A stretch of 61,989 bases of DNA, the filler included, from Sphacelaria rigidula (Eukaryota): the NCBI GenBank assembly GCA_964200075.2. It is 7 parts of 7 records of this genome, joined end to end, with 100 filler letters (N's around TTAATTAATTAA, not from the genome) between each part and the next. Parts side by side here need not be neighbours in the genome. Positions count along the whole stretch, not along the records: positions 8,872 to 17,641 come from CAXNAA020010148.1; positions 17,742 to 26,511 come from CAXNAA020010149.1; positions 26,612 to 35,381 come from CAXNAA020010150.1; positions 35,482 to 44,251 come from CAXNAA020010151.1; positions 44,352 to 53,120 come from CAXNAA020010152.1; positions 53,221 to 61,989 come from CAXNAA020010153.1; 1 more part is not named here. One strand, written 5' to 3'. Made by a program: the position numbers and the translations under genes. Positions 8,930 to 53,982 of the stretch are shown piece by piece (positions within the stretch are counted from its first letter, which is position 1; each line of letters begins with the position of its first letter). The notes beneath the pieces are model-generated. The model was not told the origin of the DNA, did no database searches, and saw only the letters and a program-made list of their open reading frames with translations.

Positions 8930-10560
8930 ACACCGAAATCTATTGAGGTCGACCAAATGCACCGATTGATAGCTTTTCAAATCTATTGATGACGGCAATG
9001 GCTATCGATAGACCACGTGCCAAATCTATTGATGACGACGATGGTTATTGACAGATTGTATATCAACTCTATTGATTAAGGCAATAGCTATTGATAGATT
9101 GCGTATAAATCTATGCACGCAGGCAATGACTATTGATAGAAACATACCAGGATCTACTGTGGTATACAATGCCTATCGATAGATATTCCCTGTCGTCTAT
9201 TGCCACACCTACATCGCAACATACGACGTAAAGAGCATATTATACTCCATTAGGGTACGGTGAAGAAGCCGCAGGTGGACATGCAGTGGGTTTATAATGA
9301 TTCTACTTGTGAATATATGACATCACGTTTCTACAATTTTGGAACGCTTGTATTTTGCAGGAATCCGCAATATGTGTGGACAAAAGTTTACAACTTTAGT
9401 TGTTGGTGTGGTGTTATTACTTATGGTTGTCCCTCTGATGGACATGAGCGCTTACAGTACTTTTGTGTGTGGGTGAGATGTGCTTATGCCTTGGAAGATA
9501 GACTATGAAAATAGAACATTGGCGCTGCAATAGCTCCGAAAAATTGTCTATCAATGTTTGTTGTCAGTGACAATCGACTGACATCAAAGTCTATCGGTAG
9601 CTGTTGTAGGTGACGATAGATTCGGGACAAGGGACAGAATGTATCATCGCCGTGACAATGCAGGGGCCAACTTGTCTGGCGATACATTTTATTTGTTGCA
9701 ATAGGCTCTGAATCGTGGCCACCAATGTTTATTGCTAATCACTATAGCATCTGTCACGCGGCAAGCAATACATATTGTTGGTCACAATAGGATATCAATT
9801 GAGCCCACCAATGTCTATTGAGGGTCACAATAGAATCTGAGTCGCGGCCACCAATGTCTACCGCTGGTCACAACGTAATCTGAATCGCGACCACTAATAT
9901 CTATTGCTGACCACAAAAGTAGCCGAATGGCGTCGATCACTAGCGCTATGTATGCATATATTCCGCTGTATGTTTCCACCTTATTCCACAGAAGCTATGG
10001 CCAGCTATCGCCTCAGGTCGTTGCGTTTTCATGTGCAAGGGGTATTGCGGTTGATATCATGAGACCATTGCCGTGAGCAATCGTATTTTCAAATCCTATC
10101 GTTGGCGTCACTGGCTATCGATAGGTGTTCCCGAGGACAATCGATTGTTGACGGCAATGCCCATATTGGTAAATACCAAAAAATTAATTGTTGGCGGCAG
10201 AGGCTACCGATAGACGGCTAACAAATCTATTGATGGCGGTAATAGGTATTGATAGATGGCTCACCTAATCTATTGATGACGGCAATGACTATCGATGGAG
10301 ATATCACCGAACATATTGATTATGGCAATGGCTATGGATATATACAAATCAGAATCTACAATATTGCGGTACGCAATGTCCATCGATGGCCAGTGATCTT
10401 CATCTATTGCAATTGCCTATCGATCGACTATTGCAACATCTATTGTCCCTTGCAGTACATATCAATAAATGTGTTTCACCATCTATCGTGTTCGATAGTA
10501 TATATCGATAGGTTTTTCCCCGTGTCTATTGCTAAAGCAATGGACTATTATTGTGTCCAT
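8930..10560. repeat. CTATTGAT/CTATCGATAG-rich element with ~43-bp tandem arrays
   Basis: Units such as AAATCTATTGATGACGGCAATGGCTATCGATAGACCACGTGCC at ~8978, 9021, 9064, 9106 and 9148. A second block lies at ~10090-10400. Confidence 0.75.
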
Positions 10561-11236
10561 TGTCCAGAATGTGGTGAGCTTGGAGCGGCGGCATGTCCTT
10601 CATTTCAGCGTTCTCCATGCCAAGAATCTTTGTACACGGCAGCTGAACGCATCCGCCAACGCCTCGGCAATAAACTAGAGGACAGCAGGATGGGTGCCCC
10701 CCCCCCCCCCCCCTCAAAAACTCGAATTTTCGATCTTGGGTCCTACGTGTCCCGAAGTAATTTTTTTACAGACCCTTGGAACGCCTTAAACAAATCGCAG
10801 AGAGGATGATACTCGGACGTCAACTCTTGATACTCCGTGAGCCAGGCGTTGACTTTTCGGGTCATGTTTTCGCATTAATGTCGTATATAGTCGCACCGTC
10901 GCAGTGTATGCGCCGCCATGATCGCGCGAATACGCGTACCGGTATGGACATGAGGACTACAGTGTGCGGGATGAGCTTCTGCTGCCTCTTACCTTTGCAC
11001 TGCATCCTTCCCACGGGCTGTGCTAGCTAGCCACGTAGCCCACCTTTGTTGGCCCAACTTGGTATGTGTATAGCATGTGTCGTAGTGACGAAGCGGGCCG
11101 TCTTCGCACAAGTTCATTAAGACGATCTATTAGCCTCGTCATACGGCGAAACGACGCAGCTGACAACATAACTCGTTTTTGCTCTGTCCGCCAGGCCATT
11201 GGTGCGGCTAAAATCGCAAGACAGTCCCTCGCAACG

Positions 11237-11507
11237 ATGAGCGCGGCCGAGGGCCCTTATATATACCCCGCCGGAGGCACGTACCACCACCCTATCGCCG
11301 TAGCCCTCCTGTCAGATGATGGGGCAGCTATTTTCTACACAACCGATGGAACCGAGCCTACCGAGAGCTCGGACACTGTGCCCTCCGGCGAATTGATTGT
11401 GATAGAAGAGTCGGGTTTACTGCGGGCGATCGCAGCACAAAATACTAATACCTTCTCAACGACTTCGTCCGAGGAGGTACAGGCGACCTTCGTTGTCTAT
11501 TCCACAG
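11237..11507 (+). CDS. Exon 1: Fn3-associated/chitobiase C-terminal-like domain
   Basis: MSAAEGPYIYPAGGTY...IFYTTDGTEPTESS...LRAIA; donor AG|GTGAAT, phase 1. Confidence 0.85.
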
Positions 11508-14500
11508 GTGAATTTTGTTTCCGGCGCTATTCTTTGCAGCATGGCGATGATCTATGAACCTTGCTATAATCAGTGAGCAGAAAATCTATTGACGCGAACT
11601 TTTCTGGACTATCGTTTCTTCGTGCCCATGGACCACAATCATCCCGAATACACTCCTGCACTACGTTCATGTATTCGGGCAGGATAACGAGCTGTTCGGG
11701 AAACCGACCTTGTGTACTACTGTTCATTCGTCGCCAGTCCTCTACCCAATACTATCAGGGGATGCACGCGCGCGGCGGGAAATAATGCCACGGTAGGGGT
11801 GCACTTTATAGTCCCAGATATTTGTCATCAAGGGGCCCCTACAACCAAGAGCCCCCCACTTTTGGTCAATGGTCAAACGACTAAGGCAAGCAACAAATGA
11901 GTACGCCCCCCCCCCCCCCCCCCCCCAAACCCCACACTCCCACCTCGGGCCCCCCTCCCCCCGCACTTGTTTTCCCATGTCCCCCCGTTCCTCCCCCTGN
12001 NNNNNNNNNCGCACACCAAGCACCCCCCACTCTCGGACACGCAAGATACCCAACACCCACACCTAAACAAAAAGCCCCCCCCCCCCCCCCCCCCCCAAAA
12101 GTGCACCCCTCCCGTGGCATTGCTCGGGAATGTCTAGTGGCGCCTGGATGTGTCCTCTTCAGAACCACGATAACGTCGATTCACAGTCCGGCGGGTGTCA
12201 TCAATGCTCTTATATACTGTACCATTCCCCAGAAATAGAATGCACCGGTTCTCTTGTTCTCATTCTCGCCCGGGTAATTCCTCATTGCTCACGAACCTCC
12301 AGGAAAGTGTGGCCATGCCTACTTTGTGCCGGGCTTCACCATTTCAGGATACTCCGGAAAGTTGGTAGACGTTGACCTGGGAACCACGGCCATGCAAAGC
12401 GTCCGGCTTCACAGTGTGGTGACAGACTTTGCTGACTTTTACTCAGAGGGAGGCGTAGGTCCCTATGACGCACAGGTGCGCAGCACTCGCGAGTGACCAA
12501 TTTGGTATCAAGTCCTTCGGAACAAGTAGAACCTTGCGTGGTACAGAGCCATGGGAGTGCCAAGAGACATACCTGGTCACTTTGTTGCATCTCCGGCTGA
12601 AGTGAACTCTTCGTAGCACCCAAGACATGAACCTGCAAATAGGTGTATGCACGACTTGTTTGGACCCTGGAGCGAAAAGACCTCAGCGGTATATACACTT
12701 TTCCCGCTGAATGCATCTATTGCGCATTCCGATGGTGGCCAGAGCGCGGAAGGGGTCTTGTTTAACTAAAATGGCCTTTCGACTAGGGGTATGTGCGAAT
12801 GCTGTACCTTGGGCTGTACCCTGCGCACTGCGCACTGCGCTGTGTCAGTATGTGCATGTTTAATTGCGTGTTGTACGCCTGCCTATAGGTTGTTCACCAA
12901 TATATACTTGGAAGGGTTAACGCTGGTACAGAAGACAACAGTGATAGTATTTAGCATTAGTCTGATACCGCGGCAGCAGAATCGTCGGATAAATCCACCG
13001 CAGATATTTTTTGTCTCGTTCCACAGTGTAGATGTCCCATCTGTTCACGCTGCGGTTGATGCCTGCCTGCATCGCAAGTCCTCGTTTTCGGTGGTTTGTG
13101 CAGATGATTTTGTCATCCCAACACAAATGAACACGTTCCACTTGGTGTGTCGTGTGATGCGGAAGGTTGCCATTGAAGACCTGACCGCTGGCGGAGACTC
13201 TTCCCTTGCAGGCTATTGGGGGGGATTCAGTGGAGAGATCGATGGGCACAACCTGGGTTTCCTCAGTCCGCTCTTCAACGGGGAAGACTTCCACGGTAAT
13301 GCAGTCCAGGTGGGATGCTTTTTTTTTTCCAAGAAAGGATGTAGAGTGTATCTAGGTCAAGGCTACTTACGACGCTGCTACATTATTCAACATTTCAAGG
13401 CAAGTGCAATGCCCCCCGCCCGCACACGGCTTTTGCTAGGCCGTCTGTTTCGATGAAAACATGACACTGCCACACCGGGTCAGTGTCTGCGATGGTGCCC
13501 TGGACCTTGATCATGTGTTGATGGGTTGCGCAGGCATTCCTTCCACGTGCACTTGATCGTGAGGTGAACAAATATTTAGAGAGGAGCGATTCAGCCAGTA
13601 CCCAACCTCGAGGGCAGGGCGGATTCGGGCGAAACCTACGTCGCCCCGTGTTGCGTGATAATTGGGTTGTTGGAGTTACATATATATGTATATATATATG
13701 TACACAGGAAGCTTTGACTGTGGAGTGGACATTAAAGATCTGCGGCGATTTTCAGCCAGCGGACAAAAGATCATTGGGTGCGTAAGTTTTGACCATACTG
13801 TCGAGACTACGCCCTATTGAAGGAGGACTTATCACGAGTGTCTGCAGCGAACGAAGGATCGTGATCCACAGCGGCGACAACGGAAAGGCGGCGAAGAAAA
13901 AATGGTCTGTGTCCCATCGATCAGTTCCCAAAGAGAAGCATGCTCCCGTTCCGGGTGTCCTTGTTGTGGTTGCTACTCTTGAGTACCGTTTGGAGGAATT
14001 GTGCTATCTAGTCTTGGCTTCACCCCCGTGTCGTAAACTGAGAATATGGCACCGCTGCTCCCTGATGGTGCTGCTCCAGGTTCAACTGGAGAATTTCGGA
14101 AAAGAAAACATCACCCGCTTCTGTGAGTCGGCCTCTCTCCCGGGCGAGAACTCCACGTGTCTCTTTACCGTCTTAAACCTTGAAGAGGTGAGCGACGGCG
14201 CGACAAATTACATACATTATCCCAATTTCGAGGTTGGAAAAACATCACGGGGGCACGTCAGTCTCTCGCACAAACTCGACAGGGATTTCACCTCCCCTTT
14301 CCCCACGAGACCGTGATATAAGACCATGAGATGCGATCTGCTGTCAAAAAACAGGTTGACGCCGACCTTCGCGGTTTCAGCGGGGGGTTCCTCTACGATG
14401 AAAAGGCATATTTTGTTCCTTCTCGAAATGGCCGCGGACGATATGCCAAGCTGGTTCGGGTGGATGCCGGCAACTTCTCCGCCGGTAGCGTCGAGGTGCA

Positions 14501-16779
14501 CTTGGGGTATGGCTGAGTAGGACAGGGGGAGGAACCCAACACCGGAACCGTGCGCAATTGTGTCGTGTGTACACAATGCTTGACCGCAACCTTGCAGGTC
14601 ACATTTTTCGTCATCGTCAAATACGCTCAGCACCACACCGTGTAGCGTCGTATAAACAATGCGCGATTGCTGCTCATCCGCGGCTTCGACCGTACGCCTA
14701 CTGGCGCACTTCAGATGAACGCTATTCTATTCAGAATCACCCTTACCTAGCCTCCGTGCGCCCGTCGCTCGGTGGATTTCCTCGTCCGATAGCGGCAGGT
14801 AGCACTTCAGTCGTGTCAAGTCAAGGGTGTGCTGCTCGCCTATTGTCGGCAGCCTTTGAGCTCCACGTTTTGTCATACGTCAAGTGCTTTGTTATACCAT
14901 CGACGACCCCGGTCTCTCAGGTGCTAGACCTACTGACGGTAGACTCTGAGGTGGGGGGGTTCTTCGGAGGATTCGCCGCCGACGGGTATGGCTACCTGGT
15001 CCCCTCCAGGGCGTTCAAGGTGCGGAGTACACGCGGTACTGTACGTGATGCAACAAAACAGCCGTGGGCGATAAGAGTTTAGGATTTGGAACCTAACACC
15101 CAGGGATATTTTTTCAAAGTGAGGTGGTATTAAACGCACCTCTGTACGGCGCTGCGGGTATCGTACCGGCATGGTGTCAAAATAGCCGAAGTCTTATCAG
15201 CCGGCGATATTCAAGAGTGGTATCCACCGTAGGGGCGTGATGGTGTGTCATACGTGGCATGTCCGGAGTCTTTAAAATCTTTTGAATGGCTGGTAAGTTA
15301 TCTCAAATCTTGGTTACAAGATCTGTCAGATAGCTCGCGAATTCTGCACAAAGCTTGATGGTGAAAAACAGACAACATACGACTTCTTTGGCAGCTCAAC
15401 AGCTCTCATAAGATTCCACGGCTAGTGGACAAAAGCAGACTTTGAAGTTCTGCACCAGATACCTTTTTCTTGGTCCTTCACGTATGGCATAAATTTTCTG
15501 GAGAGCTAATTCCGTTTGACCCTTAGTAGCTTGCGCTGCATCACGGTCACATCTCGATATTTATCTCATGCAAAAACCAAGCTCTCCATACCGCTGATGC
15601 TGCACGAGGATTGTTCTGCATATGTTCTTCTGCACATGGGGAGTACAGCAGTCCGGCAAATATTTAATTTGTTAGGTCATCTGCGATGTGTGTTCCCCGC
15701 CCCCAGTATGTGCCAGCTCACACACATACCTAGCTAGATAGCCGGGCCTCGGTGGTTTGAACTGCAAGTGTACAGTGGGAACCTGCTGTGGCGGAAGATG
15801 GAGGGTTCGAAGATCGGCAGATGCATATCGATTTGTTTTCTGAGAAGCATCTGGTCAAACTCATGAAGACGTGAGGAGCTCTTGAACCTTATTTGATGAG
15901 AGTCGATGCGGTGCGAAAATGCCGCTCAAACCCGTTACAGTGAAATATAAGGTGTGTTCCGGGTAAAGAGATCGGAAGTTTTCTTCACACTACACGGATT
16001 CGTGCCAAGGAAGGAGAGGGATGAAAAGGATGGCGATAAGGAAAAACTCACCAAGAATATTTTATACGATGATTCAACGCTACCTCACCCTAACCTGCGC
16101 AACCAAGTATGGCCATATACATATTGTTTTCATCATTTTTATTTCTTTGTCGCACTTTGAACCCCTCCCCTTCCTCGGGATAAGTCCGTGGTCTCAAGGA
16201 ATCAACCCATCTCTCCCCCGGTACACGCCTTGCATTTCGGTCTCGCGGATTGGGTCATGATCATCAGCACTCCCGCACCGCGTCAACTCACGTCGAACAA
16301 ACTCGGTCGACTACTTTATTTACCCACGTTCTCACGCTTTCCACGGTGAAAATCAGATATTACGAAGAAAAAACCCAACGCATCGAGAATCGAAGCCTCG
16401 TTCTCTCCGCCCTACTGGCGATAGTTGGACCATTTCACCACTGGGACGCGGAGGCCCTATATATATAATATGTGTGTTCGTGGTCTCAGGGGGGAGTCCC
16501 GCGGGGTACTCTCATTTCTCTTTTATGTCATGCAATATACTGTGCCATGACCATCCAGTCGACTGCAACGCGCCCCGTAAACATGCACATGAACTTCCAA
16601 TTGTTCGATTGCAGGGCCCAGTGGGCGGAATAAACACGAACTTAAGCGCTGACGGCGTAGCGGCTTCGTCTCTCTTGGAAGACAGTGTCGACGTGCGAGC
16701 GGGGGACCGGTTGGAGTCATCGTACTCGGGGAAGTTAGTTCGCGTTAACCTCACCGACTTTTCCGCTGCAGGCGTGGAG
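11237..16779 (+). CDS. Uncharacterised multi-exon protein: Fn3-associated/CHB_HEX_C-like domain + four GFxGGF...YFVP...GKLVRVDL repeats (3'-incomplete)
   Basis: Seven GT-AG exons join in phase with no stops: 11237-11507, 12303-12475, 13166-13309, 14080-14187, 14355-14495, 14921-15019, 16615-16779. IFYTTDGTEPT motif is in exon 1. Confidence 0.85.
11860..11915 (+). repeat. Dispersed short repeat GGTCAATGGTCAAACGACTAAGGCAAGCAACAAATGAG + poly-C
   Basis: Near-identical copy at ~17770-17825 and a reverse copy at ~16815-16890. Confidence 0.8.
12303..12475 (+). CDS. Exon 2 of repeat protein
   Basis: Acceptor ctccag; GKCGHAYFVPGFTISGYSGKLVDVDL...YDAQ; donor GTGCGC. Confidence 0.85.
13166..13309 (+). 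CDS. Exon 3 of repeat protein
   Basis: VAIEDLTAGGDSSLAGYWGGFSG...FHGNAVQ; AG/GT flanks, phase 0. Confidence 0.82.
14080..14187 (+). CDS. Exon 4 of repeat protein
   Basis: Acceptor ctccag; VQLENFGKENITRFC...VLNLEE; donor GTGAGC. Confidence 0.82.
14355..14495 (+). CDS. Exon 5 of repeat protein
   Basis: VDADLRGFSGGFLYDEKAYFVPSRNGRGRYAKLVRVDAGNFSAGSVE; AG/GT flanks. Confidence 0.87.
14921..15019 (+). CDS. Exon 6 of repeat protein
   Basis: Acceptor ctctcag; VLDLLTVDSEVGGFFGGFAADGYGYLVPSRAFK; donor GTGCGG. Confidence 0.87.
16160..16450 (-). mobile_element. tRNA-derived SINE, family 1
   Basis: Reverse complement matches 54325-54615; tRNA-like head with A/B-box remnants and a shared body. Confidence 0.75.
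16615..16779 (+). CDS. Exon 7 of repeat protein
   Basis: Acceptor ttgcag; GPVGGINT...SYSGKLVRVNLTDFSAAGVE; donor GTGTGC. Confidence 0.85.
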
Positions 16780-17827
16780 GTGTGCTGCTCGGGGTACTTT
16801 GAAAAGGCCACAGGAGGGGGGGGGGCTTCTCATTTGTTGCTTGCCCTTAGTTGTTTGACCATTGATCACGCATCCCTTTCGAGACGGAGCACCGTTCCTA
16901 CTCGTACTCCTAATAGAGACACCTCCAACATTCCGGCGCTCATTACGTTTCTTCCATACGTTGCACAAAAACAAATTACATATCTTATCCCCGTCCTATT
17001 TCGTCATCTTTGGCCACCATCTATCTTCTAGTATAACCATCGTTTTCTCGCCACTGTCTAATGCACCAACGATTCCATGCCACCTTCGTTCATGTCCCGC
17101 GTTTCCCTCTCTAGCACGTCCCGTTCCTCCTTGTATAGTTCAAATGCTGCAACTGTATGACTTCTGCTCTCTACTGCTTTGCCATTCTGTGCATTTACTT
17201 CCTCCACACGACTACTGGTATTAGGCCACAGGAGGGGGCAGAAGGAATTATTGAGAAATGCGTGCAGGACGTTCGTTGCTACTATGACGTACTCGTGTAC
17301 TCGTGTAATCTTGCTGCTGTTTATATTTAGGTTATCGCGTACTTGTATGTTCCCGAGTGCGGGGTGATAGTGTAGTGACTGTACCGCGATGTGTGACGTG
17401 ATTGCATCATTGGAGGGTTTCGAAAACGCGTGTTTGTGTCCTAGCCTAAATTGTGTCGGCGTTTGTACCTCATAAAGCGAAACATTTCCATACACTACTT
17501 TCTCTTTTTTTTCATGAACCGCATGCAAACCTCAAAACGCTGAGGGACGTATGGGAGATGCCACGATAGCGCCCCCCTCCTTCCCCCCCCGATCCGGCGA
17601 GAACCCGGCGTGCTCCGTCCCGGCTTTGTAGGGGCGAACCCNNNNNNNNNNNNNNNNNNNNNNNNNNNNNNNNNNNNNNNNNNNNTTAATTAATTAANNN
17701 NNNNNNNNNNNNNNNNNNNNNNNNNNNNNNNNNNNNNNNNNCCCCCCCCTCCGTCTCGAAAGGGAGGCGTGGTCAATGGTCAAACGACTAAGGCAAGCAA
17801 CAAATGAGTGCGCCCCCCCCCCCCCCC

Positions 17828-18105
17828 ACCCCCTCCTCGGGACGAGTCTGCGGTCTCAAGGAATCAATCCATCTCTCCCCGGTACACGCCTCGCATTTTG
17901 GTCTCGCGGATTGGGTCAGCACTCCCGCACCGCGTCAACTCCCGTCAAACAAACTCAGTCAACTATTTTGTTCACTTCCGTTCTCACGTTTCCCACGGTG
18001 GAATTCAGATACGACGAAGAAAAAACCAAACGCATCGGGAGTCGAACCCTCGTTCTCTCCACCCTAATCGCGACAGTCTGACCATTACAGCACCGGGGCC
18101 CGGCG
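17828..18105 (-). mobile_element. tRNA-derived SINE, family 1
   Basis: B-box GGTTCGACTCC on the minus strand (~18037-18048); body shared with 16160-16450. Confidence 0.78.
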
Positions 18106-18172
18106 GCACAGACGCGAGGTGTTCCGATGGTCATGCACGTTGATCCGTGAAAACGGTTACATGTATACACAC

Positions 18173-18709: not shown

Positions 18710-18914
18710 CAAGGGTAGGTCGAGCAGAGTATACTCAATTGCGGGGTATTTTGAAAGTCGTGCTTCCAGTACACAAGTTGGGAGTAGGTTTTTTTCGGAT
18801 CGCTTTCCAGTTATATTTTGGGTACACTTCCAACACTCTACCCTAATTCGAGTACCCCAAGTACGTCTTTCAAAATACCCCGCAATTGAGTATACTCTAC
18901 TCGACCTGCCCTTG
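18710..18914. mobile_element. hAT-like MITE
   Basis: ~48-bp TIRs CAAGGGTAGGTCGAGCAGAGTATACTCAATTGCGGGGTATTTTGAAAG; 8-bp TSD GATTCGTG/GATTCATG (1 mismatch). Confidence 0.85.
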
Positions 18915-19014: not shown

Positions 19015-19507
19015 ACGAGCTACACCGGGTAAACTAGGCACATGGCGTGAGTGAGCTATGAGCATTTGTTCTCGGGGTTAGCTTCCGTGCGTACCTCATC
19101 CTCTCATGTTTTCCCTGGGTGAGCTATGAGAGCTGCGAGAGCTACATATGATTTTCCTGGGTGAGCTGTGAGAGCTACATGAGCTACGCATGTTTGGCCT
19201 AGTTGAGCTACCAACCCCTAGCTCATCAGCTCATATTCGCCCTGGGTGAGCTATGAGAGCTACATGAGATAAGCCCATTTGTCCTGGGTGAGCTGCCAAC
19301 CCGTAGTTCATCAGCTCATATTCGCCCTTGGTGAGCTATGAGAGCTACATGAGCTACGCATGTTTGGCCTAGGTAAGTTACCAGCCCGTAGCCCTTCAGC
19401 GCACGTTTACCTTTGGTGAGCTATTGGAGGTAGCTCGAATGTTCATGTTCAACTACAAGTGAGCTACAGCCCACAGATGAGCTAGCTCATGAGTTGCCCG
19501 ACGTGTG
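19015..19507. repeat. GAGCTA-motif array with 42/43-bp period
   Basis: CTGGGTGAGCT-like unit starts at 19115, 19157, 19199, 19242, 19284, 19327, 19369 and 19412. Ends in CCGACGTGTG. Confidence 0.85.
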
Positions 19508-20177: not shown

Positions 20178-20178
<1 letters not shown>

Positions 20179-20226: not shown

Positions 20227-20227
<1 letters not shown>

Positions 20228-22474: not shown

Positions 22475-23416
22475 TTAATCTGCCTACACCGGCAGACATA
22501 TGCCGGGCGGTCAGCAGTCAGCAGTAGTTCAGACATGTTGAACCAACGACCACCGTCTAGACCCGCCGCATTTTTGAACCTGTGTGCAGATCCGCGCTTC
22601 GATCTGGGCTACAGTACGGTCTTACACCAACTCAAACATAGATTTGACAGATATTCTCGAAATATCGAACCACAACCGCCCATACCGATATTCTTGTCGA
22701 TATTCCGAAAATGACACGATACGTATCGAGTATCGAGTATCGAGTATCGATACGGCCGTTTTGGTATGGCCGCAGTGCACAAGACACAGCAGTACACTGG
22801 CACACTGGCACACTGACACCCTCACTCACTGTTGTAGGTTGCTCAATATACCACATCCCCTAGACAGATTTTCAAAGCTCACTCACTCCTCACCAGAAGC
22901 GATGCTAGGGCTGAACTTGGCGGCGTTGCAACCATCTCTTCGAAAGAAGGTAATCGAGCTTTGAAAATCGCTCCTGAGGGTGTGGTATCTCAAGCAACCT
23001 ACGGTAGTCTCCAGTGGACAGCAGTGCGCACATGATGTACAGCAGCGGGTAGTGTGCAAATTGACATCATAGCAGCGGCGGCATGCGGTGATTCAGCCGT
23101 CTTGCGAATATCTTTCGTCAGGTATGGTATTGGTTAGTATTATAGTGTTTTCATTTCTACCGTCTCTAGTCCGGGTGTTTCGATCGAATGACCGCATACC
23201 TCGACTCTGCACATTCATCAGAAAAGGAAAATTTGTCAAACCTCGAACAAGCACAAACTCAAATGCAAGCTCTTTACCCAACGTTCTTCTCTACCAATAA
23301 CAGGAAACGTCGGCAACATGCGTCAATTTTTAATTTTTGGATGCCAAAAATTATATATTTGTATGTCACCAACCAAGAAGGAAAAACCACTAAGCTTGCA
23401 ACAATTAGAATGTCCG

Positions 23417-23749
23417 CACACGCGGCCATTTGGCTAGCTCCGAAATTCCTCCAGGTGGGTACACTTTTCGAGCCTCCAGAGCAATTAAACGCCTCCGGAG
23501 GGGTGCGCGGCCCTCCAGAGGAAATTCTTTGGTTTCCTTCAAAGGGATTGAAGACCTCCGGAGGCTAATTCTTGCCTCTGGAGGGCTGCGCATGACCCCA
23601 ATTTTCTCCGGAGGGGTGCGCGGCCCTCCGGGTCGGTAGAGTTTGGTTTTCTCCAGAGGGATGGAAGGCCTCCGGAGGCTTGTTTTCCCCCTGGAGGGCC
23701 GCGCATCCCTCCGGAGGCATTTTTGGGTGTAGCCAAATGGCCGCGTCTG
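23417..23749. mobile_element. MITE with CTCCGGAG palindrome array
   Basis: TIRs CACACGCGGCCATTTGGCTA / TAGCCAAATGGCCGCGTCTG. About 11 CTCC(G/A)GAG motifs, mostly ~20 bp apart. Confidence 0.8.
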
Positions 23750-24269
23750 CAGACAAATGGGTGGAGTGGAAAATAAATCTAACACTCGTCGAACATAAAG
23801 GAAAGGCGAAGCGACAGTACCATCTCCTCATACTCCTAAGGACAGCTGTTTCCTACTGTTATCTGCAGCTTTGCATTGACCGTGGCTTCGTATCTACTCC
23901 GCCACGCCACCCGTGTGTTGCCGTTGGTGAACACCCCCGCTGAATCACATCACTAAACCCTTAACCCACGAGGCACCAGCGGTTACTCTGATGCCTCCTA
24001 TCCTACGAACAGGTATTACATCCATTTGTACACCGTGCAACCGCTTTACAGCTATACTCGCAAGTGCAACCTGTGAACACTGCGGAAATTGAGCTGATGT
24101 GACGACAAAAACAAGAATATCTAGCGTATCGATATTCGATATTGATATTCGATATTAATACATGTCACATGTATCGATTTTCTGCGCTCCGATACCGATA
24201 TGGCATCGCCGATATTTATCCAAATCGTATCAATTATCGATATCCGATGTGCAATCCTGCTCCACAGAG

Positions 24270-24655: not shown

Positions 24656-26199
24656 CTAGGGTAGTACTCGAAGTTTGAGTAGAGCATTTGAGGTCGTACT
24701 CAACCTACTCAATAGTTCGAGTGATTATGTGAGATTATACTCTGTCTACTCGAAATTTGAGTATCGAGGTAATGGTCAAGTGATATTCTATACTCAAGTA
24801 TTACTGAGACTGAGATTGCTTACTCAATATTCGAGTGGAGTATTTGAGGTCGTACTCAACCTACTCAAAACTGGACTGGAGTAGAGTATTTGAGGCCATA
24901 CTGAACGTACTCAAAATTTGAGTGAAGTATTGGGGTCGTACTTGAGTGATACTTTACACTCAAGTATTACTGAGAATGCTTCCTCAATATTCGAGTAGAG
25001 TATTGGAGGCCGTACTCGACCTACTCAAATATTGAGCTGAGTATTTTAGGCCGTACTCAACGTGCTCGAAATTTGAGCAGAGCATATGAGGCCATACTCA
25101 ACGTACTCAAAATTTGAGTAGAGTATTGCGGTCGTACTCAAGTGATACTCTATATTCGAGTATTACTGAGAGTGCTTACTCAATATTTGAGTTGAGTATT
25201 TGAGGTCGTACTCGGCCTACTCGAAATTTGAGTAGAGTATTGGAAACCATACTTGGCCTACTCAAAATTTGAGTAGAATATTGGAGGCCGTACTCGACCT
25301 ACTCAAAATTAGGGATCCGATGTACTGAAAACCTATAACGTCAACTTCAATAATCAAGTTACGCAAAATACTCAAATTTGGGCAGAGAAAATACCGAGGT
25401 ATTATTAGAGTTGCCCACCCATGATGAGAGTTGATTCAAGGTCAAACTTCAGCAAACATTCCGATCAGAACCAAATCGTGCAAAACTAGGGTAGAATGAA
25501 TGTTGGGGTATTGTCGAAGGGCCCGCCACGCCTTTTAATTTCTTTTCATGGCCATCATTCGCTCATACTGCTTGTTGGCTGTGATCCAACGCCGTCCATC
25601 TAATTGATGGCCATCGTTCGCCCATGTATTCAACATAGTCTGAAGTGACGTCACGAAGTCGCCGACTGTCAGGAATACTCACCATACCCAAAGAGTACTC
25701 TATACTCGAGAATTATTGAGAGTGCTTACTCGAAATTTCAGTAGAGTATTTGCGGTCGTACTCAAACTACTCAAGATTTGAGTAGAGTATTTGAGATCAT
25801 ACTCAACCTACTCAAAATTTGAGTAGAGTGTTGAGGTCATACTCAAGTGATATTCTATACTCGAGTATTATTGAGAGTGCTTACTCAAAATTTGAGTAGA
25901 GCATTTGAGATCATACTCGGCCTACTCAAAACTTGAGTAGAGTATGTGAGGCCGTACTCGACCTACTCAATCTTTGAGTATAGTATTGAGCTCATACTCA
26001 GGCGATGCTCTACACTCAAGTATCACTGAGAATGCTTACTTTATGTTTGAGTAGAGTATTTGAGGCCGTACTCGACCTACTCAAAACTTGAGCAGAGTGT
26101 GTGAGGCCGTACTTCGCCTACTCGAACGTCAAGTAGAGTAAATACTCGAGTATTTTACTCGAGCACTCAGAAGTACAGACTCTACTCGACCTACCCTTG
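24656..26199. mobile_element. Non-autonomous hAT-like element with 41-bp GAGTA/TACTC tandem arrays
   Basis: Perfect 8-bp TSD AAGTACTT (24648-24655 and 26200-26207). Termini CTAGGGTAG...CTACCCTTG match the 18710 MITE. Arrays at ~24670-25310 and ~25680-26190 surround a unique core. Confidence 0.88.
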
Positions 26200-37842: not shown

Positions 37843-37910
37843 CAAGGGCAGCTCGAGTAGAGTATGTACTTTTGAATACTCGGGTAACATACTCGAGTAT
37901 TTACTCCAAC
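37843..37910. repeat. Terminal fragment of the CAAGGG hAT-like family
   Basis: CAAGGGCAGCTCGAGTAGAGTA... matches the 18710 and 26199 termini. Confidence 0.7.
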
Positions 37911-39585: not shown

Positions 39586-41181
39586 AACACGCTGGACGAG
39601 CCATTACTCGTCGAAACGAGTGCACTCGTTGATTTGATTTGAAAACACCACGAGCATGACTCGTGTGCCCGAGTTATATATAAATATATATATATATATT
39701 TCAGCACGAGCATGACTCGCGTGCTCGAGTCATATATTTTTCGACCACGAGCAATGCTTCGAGTACCCGCCGTAGTACTTTGTATCGCCACGAGCAATAA
39801 CTCGAATACCCGCCCTATTAATTGTTTCCAACCACGAGCAATGACTCGAGCGCTCGCCCTATTAATGGTTTCCACCACGTTGTCTTCCGTCCACTCCCTC
39901 TCCATCGACTTCCACGACCTCCTGGCACCAAACGACGTGCTACCAATACTACTGTTGGGCATCGTCTCTTCCGGCGTTGACATCGTCGGTATCTTCTCTC
40001 CCGTCGTCCACTCACTCGTTGCTGGTTCGCCAGCATCTTCTGAAAGAGGAGGGTGGCTCATGGGTCGACACCAAACAGCACTGCAATTAAATGTAAGTGT
40101 ACTGTTGTTGTCTTCACATTAAAAAGTCGTTCCGGTATCTGCGCAGTGCTGTACTGGGCATCTGACTCGGACGTCTTCTGTGGTCACAGACTACCACCCC
40201 ATGTTAGGGTAAAAGGAAAATCAGGAAATAAAATCGGACTCACGAAAAATTGACACAGACGCGATGCAAGAAAAACAAAACAAAACAAAAAAAGTGAAGA
40301 GAAAAAGAAGAAACAAGAAACCTATCCTTGGACCTCTGAGAGGACAGCTATGCGTATGCATAAACTAGGAAAACCAGAAAGGGCGCCACATGACACCGCC
40401 CACCGCCTCGGAGGGAGGGGTACTGCTCGAGTAATACTTCCCGCTTTAGTACAAGTCTGATATCTCCCTCTCTTTCTCGCTCTCTATGTATGTGATGCTT
40501 GGATAAAATGAGAACAAGCTTTGAATTTCGAAGCTGGAAGCTTGTACATGTGCAGATATGCATATGAACTTGAAGACCCTAGGTTCAATATCGTCGAGCA
40601 GCTCATTATAATTATTTTCTCGTCGGATTGCTGACCCCTCGACTCGTGTCGTTCACCACGAGTAATGAGTCGTGTGGTCGACACATTAATTTATTTCACC
40701 ACGAGCAATGACTCGAGTGCTCGATCTATTCATTTTTCAAGCACGAGCGATGACTCGAGTGCTCGCTCTAGTATTTTTTTCCACCACGAGCAATGACTCG
40801 AGTGCTCCCTCCATTCATTTTCTCCATTACGGGCAATGACTCAAGTACTCGACCCACTATTTTTCATCACCACGAGAAATGACTCGAGTGCTCGCCCTAT
40901 TAGTTTTTCCCGCCACGAGCAATGACTCGAGTACTCGACCTAATATTTTTTCCCACCACGGGCAATGACTCGAGTACTCGCCCTAATAATGTTTCCGCCA
41001 CGATCAACGACTCGAGTACTCGCCCTATTCATTTTTTCCACCACGAGCAATGACTCGAGTACTCGCCCTCTTCATTTTTCCACTACAAGCAATGACACGA
41101 GCGCACCCCTCCAAAAACGGCCCACGGGCAGCGGGACGAAAGCGAGTGCCACACGAGTCACTCGTGCTCGTCCCACGCATG
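39586..41181. mobile_element. Non-autonomous hAT-like element with 42/43-bp CACGAGCAATGACTCGAG arrays
   Basis: Termini ACACGCTGGACGAGC...GCTCGTCCCACGCATG. Arrays at 39649-39875 (~5 units) and 40657-41100 (11 units). Possible degraded TSD AGAAACAT/AAAAAAAT. Confidence 0.75.
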
Positions 41182-42201
41182 AAAAAAATCCATGTGTTGG
41201 CCGCTTGCGCGGCCAGTTTAAGCTTCAGCCCTTAGACAGCGACCCCCTCGCAGGTGGGCTGAGATGAGCTATGTCACATTTGAGGGCCAGAACAGCTCTT
41301 TTCTCGCCTTTTTGCATCATCATGTGGATGCTGGGTATCTATATAGGAAATAGTTCCGGAGCACCCCTGACCGTTTTTGACCGTGCAATCAATAGCGTAC
41401 AGAGTCAGTATGGTGCGGTATGTCTCCGCTGGATACGACGGCAAGAAACAATCAGCGTGTCATCGCTCTCCAATGAACACAACTCACTGCATGCTGATGA
41501 TGACTCTGCTTAGTGTTCCACAGCAACACCACAGTGTGAAGCTATGCCGGCAACACATGAGGGGTCAGACAAGCGGCACAGACCACGAGCAGAGCATAAA
41601 ACACGTTACTGTATTTGCACCCATGTTATCTATGGTTGAATTGCCATGACCAAGATGAGAAATACCAGTAGACAGCGAAGGAGTTAGGCCTGGACACAAT
41701 CTGCTATTTGTTTTGCTCGTTTTTTGCGCTTTTCTGTTTTTTTCCCTGCGTTTTTATTCGCTTTTCTGCGTTTCTTCTGCGCCCTTTTCTTATGTTCTGC
41801 ACCCGCCTCCCCTTTTTCTGACCCTTTTTTTTTTCGGCCCCTTAGGTTGTTTCTCGACCCTAAATTTCTTTCGGCCCTTCGTGTTGAAAAGTACGACCCT
41901 ACCGCACATTTCTTTCGCGTATCTCGTTATTATTATCTCGTACTTCGCACATATTTCTCGGCGACATTTTTGACATGTGTTGTGCTTCTCGTCTTGTACC
42001 AGTACAAAATGCCACATGATCCATGGAGAGAAATGTATATACTTCGGGTATCGGCCACGCCGTGCTGTGAAATTCACCATGACCTTCGTACATTGAACGA
42101 ACGGTTTCTTCCCACAACATGAATAACTTCGAAAAACTAGAACAAATAGATGGCGACAGATCGCCCGAACTAGATGGCTGAACACATCGATACTTGGAAA
42201 C

Positions 42202-44251: not shown

Positions 44252-44351
44252 NNNNNNNNNNNNNNNNNNNNNNNNNNNNNNNNNNNNNNNNNNNNTTAAT
44301 TAATTAANNNNNNNNNNNNNNNNNNNNNNNNNNNNNNNNNNNNNNNNNNNN

Positions 44352-49774: not shown

Positions 49775-52700
49775 TTATTCCGTGTCCCACGCCGTGTCGG
49801 GGTTGCGCAAGACAGCTGTGTCGATGTCCCCTTTGTCGTGTCGTTGTAGGCACCAAGATCCTCGGCGAGCGGTCGGCATCTCGGTGTGGTGATCGTCGTG
49901 CAGACGGATCTTGCGAGGACCCGGATCATCGAGGAAGCGGATGTAGTAGGAATCGTCCGCCTCAGGATCTATCAAACCAATCTTCCTCAGCAACCACCGC
50001 GAATCCATAGCCCTGTACCAAAAATATGCGCCTTTCGGCAAACGTTTCTTCGAAAAAGAGCGCAGGTATTGCGAACGAGAAATGAGACTATAGCCCAAAA
50101 TGAAAAATCGTGCCGAGTGTTCTCGGGCCAGTTCACGAGCTGCTGCGCCTTTTCGCATAGACCTATATCGTTTGTTCAACGGGCGGTGTTGGACGACATC
50201 TCCAACCCAATAAAAAAGTATTTCTCTTTGAAAATGACGCAAATCCTCCTCCCGTTCCCGCGTAACACGCATGAGGCCTTTCCAGTGAGTCTGATACGTA
50301 ACCGCAATTTTACCGCCTCGATCTCGGACTAGTTGATGGCCCGAGATGCGATCTACCACTACACGTTCAAGAGGACCGTCAGCGTCTTCAACTGTCATGT
50401 GGTATGGTGGGGTTTTTTCCGCATACCTGGTTAGCACATACCGACTGAGCCCCATAGGCAATTGCTTGGGCATATCACTAGTGTCGTGAGGGGGCAGACA
50501 CGGCTTGCACCGAAGCATCAAGACCCGGTTTTTGGGTTTGACGCCAAGTTCATCCGTGGGGAAATACAAATACAAAAGCTTCTCACCTACTGGCCTATCG
50601 TTAGGTGCGGTATCACAAGGCCCAACTGCCGAAATCTTCCAAGGACCAGTCCAATTCAAGCAAAGCTTCGACTTCAACGCCTTATCCGACGACGACTTAG
50701 CAGAGCTTGCACCTTGGGTTAAAGTTCTCATATCGTTATACACCAATGCCCATTCACCTACTTTCCACACCGGACGTTCACTGCATCATCCAACACGCTG
50801 TTTGCTTTAGCTACCTTTGCTGCGTTGATCAAGTTCTGCTCCCGTACCACTTCATATGCAAGACGAAGACGATTGATTACTAACAGACATATGATACTCC
50901 ACAATATCCCGATCCAAACTCTGATGACCACCAGGGGGTTTCCTGTCGAACACTGTCAATGGCAACCTGAGCATACGGTCAATATGAACTTCATTGGGAG
51001 CCAAGCCTGTGGCGGCATTGACGGAGTTGTTGCAGTTCATTTGGACAAGGGGTAAGTGCAGGTCCTAGTCCGTTTATCGCTCATTGGTCACTGTGGCAAG
51101 CATTTGTGCCATCGTGTGATTAACTCGTTCGATCCCACCGTTAGGGGACGGATGGTATGAACTAGTAAAATACGATGGGCACCCAGGAGATTACTGATCG
51201 CGGCAGACAGTTTGCCGGTAAAATGTGGGCCGTTATCGGATAACAAACGTTTGGGGACACCCCACTGAGGGATGTATGTGTACACAAGGACTTTGGCAGT
51301 CCCTTCTGCGCTATAGTTGGCCTCCGAAACAGTATTCATCACAGCATATCGACTGAACCGATCCGTAAACAACAAAATGCACTTGTTACCACTATCATTG
51401 AGGGGCAGGGGGCCAAAGTAGTCCCATGAAACTATTTCACCAGGCCCATTGGGGAGGGGCATAGAGATCACCGGCCATCTAACTGTTCGACGCGAAGTTT
51501 TGCGTGCTTGGCAAAGAAGACACCGCCGAACCCACCAACGCACACATTGGTAAATCCACCAAACAAAACGCTGAAGCATCTGGAAGGTCCTAGCGACGCC
51601 CAGATGTGTGGATGCTTGTGAGTGGCATTCATGGAGAACTCATGGACGCAGAAGCATCGGAACATAAATACGTACGGGGGCATCACCCAACAAACGGGCG
51701 TGACTACTTGTAGGCTCCCCTCTAGGAGGTTTCGTGGGGAGGCGGTGAACTAAAAGAACAACGCCATCATCATCCGTATAAAGCATGCCTTTACGCGATA
51801 CTCCAGTAACTTCATCCTGTGTGGGGGCTCGGTGGGGCCTTACTGGCAAAAAGAACTCAGTTTCTGGAAAGGGGGAGGGGCATCCTTTGGATAGATAATG
51901 TATAGCTGCTCTACAAGTAGGTTCTGCTTGCTGTTCCCGGGCCCAATCGGCGTGAGAAAAGAGGGTCAGTTCCTTGAATACACTGTCGGAGGGGTTGTCC
52001 AAAACGCAGGGGATCGAATTGAATTGCTGTGGGATGGACACGAGGCGTTGTTTGGATGAAGGGCAAAGGGGGTGGTCAGTGTATTCTCAAACGGAACGTT
52101 CACCTCTATTCCTACGTTGTGGAGGGTGTCGGATGGTGTGGTACCGGCGGTGGTACCATCACGGGGTGGAGGAAGCACTGTCGAGGTCTCGACTATGGTG
52201 GGCAGAGGTGGTTTGGGAGGTGTTGATTTTCTGGTAGCCTTGCGCCGTGGAGGTAACGGGGGCGCAAGGAGGCTATCGGGGACTGGAATGGGGTTGGGGA
52301 TTGGGAGGTCTGGGCCGGCTGCTGCCCGGGCGGCAGCCGTTTCTGCGGCCCGGCGTCCTCGGGTCCGGCTCGAGATGAGGTCTCGAACTTGAACCGGGAG
52401 GGCGCAGTCAGTAGAAACCGGCTCGACAGTGCAAACCATCCGATGACTAGACGCGCGACATTGATCATACCCGCCGGTGGTTGCACGAATTTCACTCCTA
52501 ACTGAACACATCGATCGTGGGGCCAAACTGCCCAATACAGAAGCGTGAGCCGAAGGCGTCAGCTTATTTTCAATAAGTGCCGAGTTGTGGTTCAGTGAGA
52601 GTGGTGTATAGAGTCCGCGATGACCATTTGTGCTCATGAAATATACAATATCTTCGGTGGGGTCTGTGATGCGACCCAAGGCGGAGTTGTCGATGGGTTG

Positions 52701-53120
52701 GGCTGGTAAGGATAAGCGTGACAGGAAGTCGGCGTTTGCGTTTTGGGGACCTGTGCGGTACTTCAACGTGAAGCTGTAGGAAGACAGGATTTCAAACCAG
52801 CGTTGAACCCGGGCGTTGTGTTCCGCCATCTTGGCGAGGTTTTCCAAATACTTATGATCTGTATAAATCACAAATGGGAGGTCATACAAATATTGCTGGA
52901 GTCGTCGCACTCCCCAAACAATTGCACCTGCTTCTCGTTCCATAACGGACCAGTTTTGTTCGTTTGAGTAGGTGGTTCGGCTCAGATATACATTGGGGCG
53001 AACACTAGCATCGTCTTGTTCCTGTTCCAGTGTGCAGCCAAACCCAATTTTCGAAGAATCCGTGTGCAATCGGAACGGACGGGAGCCATTTTCAGCAGCT
53101 GATCAGTCTGGAAAAACCAG
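49775..53120 (-). pseudogene. pol: pol 3' half: RNase H, integrase (HHCC, DDE, GPY/F), chromodomain
   Basis: HTDSS...YTDH...NADFLSR; HECH...HLG...CLLC; WDYFGP, SDNGPHF; KLCLNWTGPWKI; VDRISGHQ...YQTHWKG...EREEDL. Several frameshifts and stops. Confidence 0.92.
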
Positions 53121-53787
53121 NNNNNNNNNNNNNNNNNNNNNNNNNNNNNNNNNNNNNNNNNNNNTTAATTAATTAANNNNNNNNNNNNNNNNNNNNNNNN
53201 NNNNNNNNNNNNNNNNNNNNAGCACGGTTTGCTTATTTTGCCAAAACTATCGACGCTAGCACTTTCGAGTGCTCATGGAAAATGTTATGCGGAAAACCCC
53301 CGAAAATACGCCATCCGCAAAAAATACTAGACGGAGGTCTGTGCAGTATAGGAGGGAAACACGATCTCGATCGTTATTGTGAAGAATTTTAGACGTATTC
53401 GTTTATCTGAATATTTACCGTTTCGCCGCTGAAGAGCGGGAAAACTGCTCATACTGAACCAAAAACGGTCAATAACACCCTCCTGATAAACGGTGTATCA
53501 AATCCGTATCGTCCCAAAAACACCAACGTGAGCATTGCAGTTTGAGCGCGGCCTAAGCTTTCTCCCTGAATCTACCGGCGCCAGCACTTTCAAGTAGTAG
53601 TGAAGTATAGTACTCCAGAAAAACTCAGAAAAAAAACACAACTACGAATTCTGAAAACTTCTGACGCTGACTACTATATTCCTCATAACCCTACGGTTAC
53701 ATACGCGGATTTTCAGCAACATCCCATTGTTTCGTGTAGATGCCAGACACGCCATTCCTGGCCCAGTACCAAAGGAGTCAATTTTTT

Positions 53788-53982
53788 CCACAACGAGCAA
53801 TGACTCGAGTGCTCGCCCTATTAGTTTGTTTCTATGACGAGCAATGACTCGAATGCTCGCCCTATTATTCTTTTCCCACAACGAGCAATGACTCGAGTGC
53901 TCGTCCTATTAATTTTCACGGCCAACGAGCAGCCCAACGAGTGCAAGTGCCACGAGTCACACTCGTGCTCGTCCGACGTGTG
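53788..53982. repeat. Right end of the CACGAG-array element family
   Basis: Three to four ACGAGCAATGACTCGAG units, then GTGCTCGTCCGACGTGTG, as at 41140-41181. Confidence 0.82.

Follow-up and report, generated by a model that had tools for sequence, protein, structure and literature searches.

The window analysed here, 61,989 nucleotides of Sphacelaria rigidula DNA, consists of seven sampled pieces of about 8770 bp each linked by N/TTAATTAATTAA, and harbors the repeat-bearing elements designated A to F in Table 1. As the window was joined from sampled pieces, the arrays of A to D lie on separate pieces (2, 3, 5 and 7), in agreement with the earlier remark that they occupy several independent contigs. 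None of the 189 open reading frames of at least 90 amino acids in the window encoded a transposase, BED or hAT domain, and known RNA families and tRNAs were likewise absent from it.

Table 1. Repeat-bearing elements of the window and their arrays (positions along the whole stretch).
Feature	Position	Strand	Description
Element A (putative bounds)	8914..10573	+	Left-end, right-end and central arrays of CTATTG/ATCGATAG
Arrays of A	8930-9200; 9699-9916; 10080-10560		Periods 43 bp; 43 bp; 42-43 bp
204-bp MITE	18710..18914	+	C-family tip CAAGGGTAGGTCGAG, TIRs of ~48 bp, without array
Element B (uncertain bounds)	19039..19507	+	GAGCTA array, 19105-19400
Element E	23411..23755	+	MITE-like; 49-nt imperfect TIRs, CTCCGGAGG palindromes
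Element C	24656..26199	+	Tips CTAGGGTAG / CAAGGGTAG, 8-bp TSD AAGTACTT; GAGTA/TACTC arrays
Arrays of C	24665-25310; 25696-26140		41-bp units, direct orientation
Solo C-family terminus	37843..37906	+	CAAGGGCAGCTCGAGTAGAG...; BLAST, 87.5% identity to 26136-26199, inverted
Element D (probable bounds)	39587..41186	+	Tips CACGCTGGACGAGC / CATGCGTGGGACGAGC; CACGAGCAATGACTCGAGTGCTCG arrays
Arrays of D	39649-39879; 40654-41101		41-44 bp; 42-43 bp (10.5 units); direct orientation
Second copy of D	53780..53982	+	Three 44-bp units together with the right terminus found in element D
Family F	59320..59612	+	26-bp motif GGAAGCAAACAGTTTACCCATTGAAC twice, direct orientation, 45 bp apart

Array periods within the window were determined with TRF and by autocorrelation against 100 shuffles, which yielded tandem arrays of 43 bp in A, 42/85 bp in B, 41 bp in C and 43-44 bp in D. 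For A, TRF reported period 43 over 8978-9149 and 9699-9916 and period 42 over 10187-10284, and the autocorrelation peaked at lag 43 (z 9.8, 13.9 and 8.0); the left and right arrays were direct copies of each other by BLAST, and the middle array was built on a different unit with CTATTG in common. The B array gave TRF periods of 42 and 85 and autocorrelation lags of 85 (z 12.9) and 42 (z 7.6), its 85-bp unit (starts at 19156, 19241 and 19326) splitting into diverged halves, one of 42 and one of 43 bp, and one extra 43-bp step was found in other B copies (joint 19365>19330 plus 7 letters). C proved to be mostly array: TRF over 24665-26140 returned period 41 with higher-order periods of 155/196, the best lag was 41 (z 15.1 and 9.3), and the TACTC/GAGTA columns were conserved in 16-21 of its 21 units; as many as 17 contigs had an odd 46-bp unit shortened by 1-4 bases and hence closer to 41. 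For D, TRF gave period 44 over 39739-39879, periods 43 and 85 over 40654-41101 and period 44 over 53780-53916, with autocorrelation lags of 43-44 (z 5.2, 15.5 and 13.4, the last being the second copy at lag 44) and unit spacings (n = 15) of 43 (eight), 44 (three), 42 (two), 41 (one) and 56 bp (one). By BLAST, this second copy aligned with the right end of D (40992-41186 versus 53785-53987, 76.6%).

An unbiased scan across the whole window, run in 240-bp segments with lags from 8 to 150 and a cut-off of z ≥ 6, detected 11 periodic regions with lags of 63, 43, 43/86, 43, 85, 113, 41, 41/114, 87, 43 and 44, two of which, at 63 and 113, are further regions outside the 41-44 range. The series 43/85-86/127-129 in the autocorrelation reflected a 42/43 alternation common to three families. 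By all three approaches, the arrays with a shared period that the preliminary description had reported were borne out, as were the motif spacings it gave for A to D, including the 41-bp period of GAGTA/TACTC (13 of 19 within-array spacings exactly 41). Its range of 41-43 bp needs extension to 41-44 bp, D units reaching 44; in the GAGCTA array, read there as 42/43 bp, the dominant period is 85 (42 + 43). The approximately 20-bp spacing ascribed to a fifth family, here E, had to be abandoned: autocorrelation over 23417-23749 displayed no 20-bp periodicity, the CTCC.GAG spacings were irregular (19, 20, 43, 50, 45, 19 and 39), and the best lag, both in the autocorrelation and in the scan, was 113, corresponding to an internal duplication of 113 bp. 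The imperfect TIRs of E correspond to an inverted repeat (I1) that is 76% complementary. Family F, too short for the scan to detect, gave period 45 by TRF (59492-59577, 1.9 copies, 92%) and lag 45 by autocorrelation (z 6.7), and bears inverted copies of GGAAGCAAACAGTTTACCCATTGAAC at about 59320 and 59588.

Each array is individually far beyond chance. Periods of 41-44 bp occurred in 4 of 6 strongly periodic families, and periods of 41-45 bp in 5 of 7 when the weaker array F was counted. When family periods were drawn from 15-150 bp, the probability of at least 4 of 6 families falling within 3 bp was 0.006 (log-uniform) or 0.001 (uniform), that of at least 5 of 7 within 4 bp was 0.0017 or 0.0001, and that of at least 4 of 10 within 3 bp was 0.059 or 0.012. 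With four to five families in 61 kb and P of about 0.0001-0.06, the indication that the coincidence of periods across families goes beyond chance is only suggestive. Independent neutral minisatellites residing inside transposons, similar in period without any cause and picked from a very large scan, might also produce such a picture, an explanation that we consider rather unlikely but worth serious attention: the simple nulls rise to the 0.059 given above, periodic regions with lags of 63 and 113 coexist in the window, and the first-stage scan covered about 250,000 windows, while the proportion of families within the narrow range and the 42/43 alternation common to three of them speak against it.

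The consensus units of A, B, C and D aligned no better than 200 shuffles, the observed score being reached by 53-110 of the 200 in five pairs and by 8 for C-D, and relatedness between units was found only among the A sub-arrays (0/200). In addition, no cross-family BLAST match was obtained at E ≤ 1e-5. This alignment check for a common ancestral unit, set beforehand, upheld the proposal that the families are unrelated. Descent of all arrays from one ancestral subterminal array of ~42 bp in a single transposon lineage, the sequence having diverged and the length having stayed fixed for lack of indels, is thus very doubtful: similarity was detectable neither among the units of A-D nor elsewhere in the elements, the tips differ (CAAGG versus CACGC/CACTG), and so do the insertion signatures (an 8-bp TSD in C, none readable in the others). 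It could draw on the two unit types within A, which are only weakly similar (z 4.6) and have the same 43-bp length, on the B half-units, which have only about 13 bp in common yet measure 42 and 43 bp, and on the 12-mer GTACTCGACCTA common to C and D together with the C-D score. That diverged A unit types and both B halves hold the same length also argues against neutral coincidence.

Non-coding interspersed elements of high copy number carry the arrays at their ends, within 10-90 bp of the element tips. Element C is a non-autonomous cut-and-paste transposon, for which a TIR+TSD search gave a TIR of 9/12 and an exact 8-bp TSD, and it alone among the arrayed elements A-D has such clean boundaries. 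The search recovered both positive controls, namely C and the 204-bp MITE (TIR 11/12; 8-bp TSD GATTCGTG/GATTCATG, 7 of 8 positions equal), at whose end, position 18914, many contigs stop matching in at least two of four runs (X3 and X4). For A, B, D and E the same search returned only trivial or palindromic matches; the left tip of A reads CACTG and the A flanks do not match each other, and D has the tips CACGC/CATGC with flanks AA/AA and no informative TSD. With no TIR and TSD recovered for these four elements (A, B, D and E), we infer their cut-and-paste status from structure and copy number only. Summed contig depth, taken on piece 3 (B, E and C) with A and D outside it, was 5.8e4-3.0e5 over the arrays versus 58-79 for single-copy contigs (run X2), although depth does not equal copy number. 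The values for C were 8e4-3e5 versus about 60-80 for the single-copy contigs of X2, E was likewise of high depth, and B, C and E all lay at roughly a thousand times single-copy depth; these three are multi-copy. A plain non-mobile minisatellite or satellite was rejected on the grounds of the arrays lying near element tips, the TIR and TSD bounding C, and the high depth of B, C and E. As for searches outside this genome, a 22-mer of a very abundant SINE-like repeat had 0 matches in viral and metagenome contigs, and a reverse-transcriptase-based search of metagenome contigs returned 6 distant loci only (23-48% identity), which were set aside.

As the preliminary description held, the arrays occupy subterminal positions in mobile elements and consist of short motifs, specific to each family, that run both directly and inverted; its interpretation as a whole is partly supported. 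The presence in several unrelated mobile-DNA families of end-motif arrays with a period of ~42 bases is a genuine regularity, seen in a sample of limited size.

Sequence immediately internal to the element tips is similar to the units. In 5 of 8 terminus tests, at most 9 of 500 shuffles reached the observed score (left end of A, 1; right end of A, 9; right end of C, 5; right end of D, 4; MITE, 3), and the other three were weak (23, 27 and 40 of 500). Such paralogy of units to termini counts against neutral coincidence, as does the organization of the D units, in which a conserved 24-bp dyad core is combined with a variable spacer (identity 0.917 versus 0.716, p = 1.6e-5). The spacer is T-rich and slippage-prone, so that its conservation could be lower without selection on the core, and the length variation of D sits in a T-run, a point in favor of coincidence.

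The explanation that we favor, to which we assign about an even chance of being correct, is that, in these arrays, non-autonomous DNA transposons carry repeated copies of an end module to which transposase binds. At least three unrelated non-autonomous cut-and-paste families would be involved (C, P-like or hAT-like; A and D, with CAC tips; B, unclassified), each of which would have amplified its own module so that tandem arrays occupy either end. Every 41-44-bp unit would represent one copy of an inner-terminal recognition module situated just inside the cleaved tip and presumably bound by the transposase of an autonomous partner; it would comprise three to four copies of a family-specific 4-9-bp motif, partly as dyads, which make up a core of 24-31 bp, with a less constrained spacer of 12-19 bp after it. 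The arrays may grow and shrink by whole units via unequal exchange or slippage, and many modules would provide many landing sites, so that the element could compete well for transposase made elsewhere, which would fit the high copy number of the families. The common period would then correspond to the length, about four turns of DNA, that a complete end module takes up, and need not mean shared sequence ancestry. Protein binding, selective advantage and the setting of the period by module size or phasing are what we infer from these structures. The orientation of the left and right arrays of A, C and D, which by BLAST is direct and not mirrored, counts against the end-module reading.

A more demanding version, which strikes us as unlikely, would have different superfamilies independently lock their end-binding arrays to ~42.5 bp (four helical turns; higher orders 85 and 128), because the assembling transpososome, or an architectural factor of the host common to them, requires consecutive modules to lie on one face of the DNA; a single spacing rule would then apply throughout the genome, each family keeping its own motifs. 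The original proposal was stricter still, namely that the four-turn period allows hAT BED fingers to bind one DNA face, with a family-specific code linking BED residues and motif, and this we judge improbable. The mean periods of A, B and D (42.3-42.8) are indeed near 4 x 10.5, half-sites in A, C and D are ~10-12 or 22 bp apart, C combines GAGTA/TACTC motifs with an 8-bp TSD, and the binding of short subterminal repeats by hAT BED domains, as stated at the outset, agrees with PMC10368747, where phasing is found to matter in Hermes. However, no hAT or BED domain occurs in the window, the tips of C are of the kind seen in P-like and not hAT families of Ectocarpus, A and D bear CAC tips, the motif spacing in B is 9 bp, and a drift of about one turn would accumulate over 10 units in C (at 41) or 5 in D (at 44); the four-turn idea itself has no other basis than the closeness of 42 to 4 x 10.5, and the repeats of known hAT elements are "haphazardly present" according to PMC4890040.

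Helical A/T periodicity, that is, curvature, was also rejected, with 0 of 8 arrays exceeding shuffles in AA/TT or WW power within the 10-11-bp band; the lack of such compositional periodicity speaks against the strict BED reading as well. It leaves next to no likelihood for an account based on DNA mechanics or host chromatin, in which the arrays would specify curvature or a lattice bound by host factors, as has been suggested for the Helitron minisatellites of C. elegans, and the position of the arrays beside TIRs and their resemblance to termini point the same way, even though a preprint describes minisatellites in transposons whose remodelling brought them into line with the helical repeat (10.64898/2026.08.08.743475). 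A hairpin or cruciform as the feature common to all arrays was rejected too, the DNA fold z being strong only for C and D (-5.2, -3.0 and -3.8, with C at -5.2) and weak in A (-2.2 and -1.4) and B (-1.1); palindromic or inverted motifs, formerly attributed to most units, are accordingly clear for C and D and weak for A and B.

Should the shared period hold genome-wide, it would imply a geometric constraint on eukaryotic transposases or host cofactors that read multi-site transposon ends, and would offer a simple signature for non-autonomous DNA transposons in brown algae; should it fail, the arrays would belong to ordinary array-bearing MITE-like elements.

Elements of the hAT superfamily have short TIRs with a YARNG-type tip, a loose consensus with which the tips of C are compatible (CAAGG/CTAGG; the right one is of the CAAGG...CCTTG type and the left reads CTAGG), and Tol2 reportedly repeats (A/G)AGTA in its subterminal region. 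An 8-bp TSD, the hAT length, was found for C (exact) and the MITE (7/8), and not for A, B, D or E. Like those observed here, the subterminal repeats of Hermes, Tol2/Tgf2 and Ac are motifs of 4-6 bp that lie immediately internal to the TIRs and run in either orientation; the zinc finger of the transposase binds them, some form palindromic pairs, and AAGTA/TACTT at the Tgf2 left end is close to GAGTA/TACTC of C (PMC4890040 and PMC10368747). They are irregularly placed (PMC4890040), in contrast to the regular 41-44-bp tandem units of the present arrays.

In Ectocarpus, hAT families carry TTGGC or CACAC tips, and P-1/P-2/P-3_Ec32, listed as "P-like, likely new clade", have CAAGG...CCTTG termini (PMC12477816 supplement 1), which recur at the right end of C, at either end of the MITE and at the solo terminus (37843); the tips of C thus appear to match those of the P-like and not the hAT families. 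The P-like TIRs are long (36-39 bp; PMC12477816 supplement 1), as are those of the MITE, whereas their TSD is 7 bp against 8 bp in C and the MITE, both of which fail a 7-bp reading. Tandem arrays are not mentioned for them in the curated table, with whose descriptions the comparison was made (PMC12477816). KDZ elements of Ectocarpus show elaborate ends that contain tandem repeats, and an 8-bp TSD (PMC12477816 supplement 1), a combination also found in C, but their tabulated tips, GGGxx and CAGTA, differ from CAAGG (PMC12477816). The CAC-type tips of A and D are closer to Ectocarpus EnSpm, which has CACxG tips, TIRs of ~21 bp, a 2-bp TSD, "complex palindromes in subtermini" and, in EnSpm-2, a "tandemly repeated RE" (PMC12477816 supplement 1); the AA/AA flanks of D form a 2-bp match without weight. 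These KDZ and EnSpm elements with repeated termini are giant (9-30 kb), with no repeat period given (PMC12477816). D further recalls Replitrons and Helitrons in its direct arrays, right-end palindrome and lack of a TSD, but the short direct terminal repeats of those elements, as characterized in PMC10288648, were not seen in D, the tips of which are imperfect inverted repeats instead.

Our literature search, with subscription journals outside its reach, yielded no report of a subterminal array period common to several families. Tetris, DINE-1/Helentron and MITE-derived satellites are likewise non-autonomous DNA elements having internal arrays of variable copy number; these arrays mostly lie inside the element and have periods of tens to hundreds of bp that are specific to each family, and none is reported to be shared across families.

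Tn7, Mu, Sleeping Beauty IR/DR and plasmid iterons contain repeats of the inner end-binding site that lack the cleaved tip and are spaced by whole numbers of helical turns, with cooperative, multivalent binding. These have 2-7 sites, as opposed to the 5-21 regular tandem units found here, and each is a single system, whereas in the present window several families have one period.

The shared period of the array-bearing families A to D, placed at 41-43 bp in the preliminary description, was borne out by TRF (see table), by autocorrelation against shuffled sequences (z 5-16) and by an unbiased whole-window scan, with a range of 41-44 bp. The scan returned 11 periodic regions with lags of 63, 43, 43/86, 43, 85, 113, 41, 41/114, 87, 43 and 44, and a 41-44-bp fundamental was seen in four of the six strongly periodic families. 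An alternation of 42 and 43 bp was common to three families (autocorrelation lags of ~43, 85 and 128), and the unit length was unchanged among the diverged unit types inside A and likewise inside B. A short fifth array had a period of 45 bp, its 26-bp motif being also inverted nearby (59320-59612). At 23411-23755 (element E), where a ~20-bp spacing had been claimed, no 20-bp array was found; E is MITE-like, with a 113-bp duplication and CTCC.GAG motifs at irregular spacings.

Features located in the window (array periods by TRF)
Feature	Position	Strand	Details
A array	8978-9149		period 43 bp
A array	9699-9916		period 43 bp
A array	10187-10284		period 42 bp
B array	19105-19400		periods 42 and 85 bp
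C array	24665-26140		period 41 bp, higher orders 155/196
D array	39739-39879		period 44 bp
D array	40654-41101		periods 43 and 85 bp
D array	53780-53916		period 44 bp
Gypsy-type retrotransposon piece 1	1-8771		zinc knuckle 4857-5396; RT/RNase H 7015-8769
Gypsy-type retrotransposon piece 2	49778-53102	minus	RNase H 51969-53102; integrase 51091-51639
CHB_HEX_C_1 + Fn3_assoc ORF	11039-11554	+	domain scan, E 6.5e-13 and 2.8e-8
SINE-like repeat, ~330 bp	16124-16455, 17824-18107, 32861-33005; 54318-54650		last copy on opposite strand
C or G homopolymer runs, 17-35 nt	10697-10713, 11906-11926, 12075-12096, 17813-17833, 29076-29110, 61885-61918, 61963-61984		
Linkers with TTAATTAATTAA	8772-8871, 17642-17741, 26512-26611, 35382-35481, 44252-44351, 53121-53220		

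The families showed no relatedness in sequence, as had been proposed. Cross-family alignments of the A, B, C and D consensus units were no better than those of 200 shuffles, the C-D pair being marginal (8/200), and related units were found by this comparison only among A's own sub-arrays; self-BLAST of the window likewise gave zero matches between different families. The 12-mer GTACTCGACCTA occurred both in C units (e.g., 25955-25975) and in the otherwise unalignable D units (e.g., 40930-40945).

Element C (24656-26199) was bounded by the tips CTAGGGTAG and CAAGGGTAG and by an exact 8-bp duplication, AAGTACTT. Its tip also bounded a 204-bp MITE at 18710-18914, with GATTCGTG/GATTCATG as the duplication, as well as a solo end (37843-37906). 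The first C array began 9 bp inside the left tip, and the second stopped ~60 bp short of the right one; the 380-bp stretch between them (25310-25690), which starts with TAGGGATCCG and finishes with ACCCAAAG, could represent either C's original interior or a small element nested there. The D tips were imperfectly inverted (CACGCTGGACGAGC at 39587, CATGCGTGGGACGAGC at 41186), with a second copy of the right end at 53982, and inspection of the D ends revealed no informative target duplication. Since a ~35-bp sequence (ACG..AAAAATT..ACAGACGCGAT.CAA) recurred just past the piece-7 D terminus (53975-54010) and inside the piece-5 D (40236-40290), the right boundary of D may lie further out, or D may prefer this sequence as a target. 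The left tip of A was CACTG, and the search of the window for TIRs and duplications found no bounds for B. The left and right arrays of A, C and D were in direct orientation.

The 21 units of C were spaced by exactly 41 bp in 13 of 19 within-array intervals, with a higher order of 41+41+73; the columns TACTC and GAGTA were conserved in 16-21 of the units, and those varying most were CG/CA alternations. The 18 D units shared a 24-bp core, CACGAGCAATGACTCGAGTGCTCG, in which CGAGCA...TGCTCG arms flank a CTCGAG palindrome. Column identity averaged 0.917 over this core and 0.716 over the spacer, which is T-rich (Mann-Whitney p=1.6e-5). The inner-tip sequence resembled the units beyond shuffles in five of eight tests (1-9 of 500) and weakly in the other three (23-40 of 500), and the C terminal TACTCGACCTAC|CCTTG can be set against the unit junction TACTCGACCTAC|TCAAA. 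Judged by this likeness, the units look like repeated inner-end modules without the cleaved tip.

Contigs of four public runs were compared with piece 3, which holds B, E and C. The summed contig depth over these arrays, which is not a copy number, was 5.8e4-3.0e5 versus 58-79 for perfectly matching single-copy contigs of run X2; at contig joints, other B copies were longer by a unit-sized step of 43 bp, and in as many as 17 contigs the odd 46-bp C unit was 1-4 bases shorter, nearer 41. Accordingly, B, C and E are dispersed families of high copy number.

Whether the similar periods are a coincidence was weighed by Monte Carlo nulls drawing periods from 15-150 bp, from which the genome's own distribution may differ. 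Under log-uniform and uniform draws, respectively, P was 0.006 and 0.001 for at least four of six families within 3 bp, 0.059 and 0.012 for at least four of ten within 3 bp, and 0.0017 and 0.0001 for at least five of seven within 4 bp, values to be read in light of the finding having been picked out of a very large scan. A shared period beyond chance is thus suggestive, not decisive, and coincidence is a serious rival, if a less likely one. As mechanisms, two candidates failed: DNA hairpin potential was strong in C and D only (z -5.2, -3.0, -3.8) and weak in A and B, and 10-11-bp A/T periodicity was present in none of eight arrays, so that unit length is what supports the idea of four helical turns. 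Of the preliminary interpretation, subterminal arrays of mobile elements held up, whereas nothing in the window supported the specific hAT/BED code or strict helical phasing. That the arrays are subterminal arrays of mobile elements is the firmer claim; the full mechanism, in which several unrelated non-autonomous DNA transposons carry repeated end modules that a transposase binds, is the most likely reading, and we put it at even chances, the common period plausibly being a common module size.

The window joins seven sampled pieces of ~8770 bp by N runs around TTAATTAATTAA and is not a contiguous locus; a further 10-N gap lies at 12000-12009, and GC is ~0.43-0.61. Among all 189 stop-to-stop ORFs of at least 90 aa, domains were limited to Gypsy-type RT, RNase H, integrase, a gag zinc knuckle and one CHB_HEX_C/Fn3_assoc fragment, the sole non-transposon protein signal, which may be a host gene exon. 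The RT ORF (7039-8771) best matched an unnamed protein (63% identity), its nearest named proteins being from Ectocarpus (44-59%); a brown-alga-like stramenopile was accordingly taken as the probable source. Gypsy-type piece 1 also bore, in a long domain-less ORF, an array of 4.7 copies of a 63-bp unit with a higher order of 126 bp (1350-1703). The SINE-like repeat, whose abundance in the runs far exceeded that of any other sequence (X2 summed depth 4.9e6 over 17742-18034), carries at one end GGTTCGATTCC, which we take to resemble a tRNA B-box; ARAGORN called no tRNA in the window, this repeat included. Several homopolymer runs cap a common ~65-75-bp repeat (11863-11926 = 17770-17833 = reverse complement of 16813-16889), and such runs would be explained by RTE-X-type elements, given the '(C)n termini' listed for Ectocarpus RTE-X LINEs and non-autonomous derivatives (PMC12477816 supplement 1).

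In hAT elements, BED fingers of the transposase bind short subterminal repeats, whose exact phasing matters in Hermes (PMC10368747); such repeats have also been described as 'haphazardly present' (PMC4890040). A period common to several families was not found reported in the literature searched. Entries of the curated Ectocarpus table (PMC12477816 supplement 1) describe P-1/2/3_Ec32 ('likely new clade, preliminary P') with CAAGG...CCTTG tips, 7-bp TSDs and 36-39-bp TIRs; hAT families with TTGGC or CACAC tips and 8-bp TSDs (assumed for hAT-2); KDZ with GGGxx and CAGTA tips, 8-bp TSDs and complex termini with repeats in tandem; and EnSpm with CACxG tips, 2-bp TSDs and 'tandemly repeated RE'. These entries changed the classification: C is P-like in its tip, hAT- or KDZ-like in its 8-bp duplication and KDZ-like in its repeated termini, and A and D are nearer to EnSpm; assigning any of them would take a transposase. 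Tandemly repeated transposon termini, according to the same entries, are thus a known brown-algal feature.
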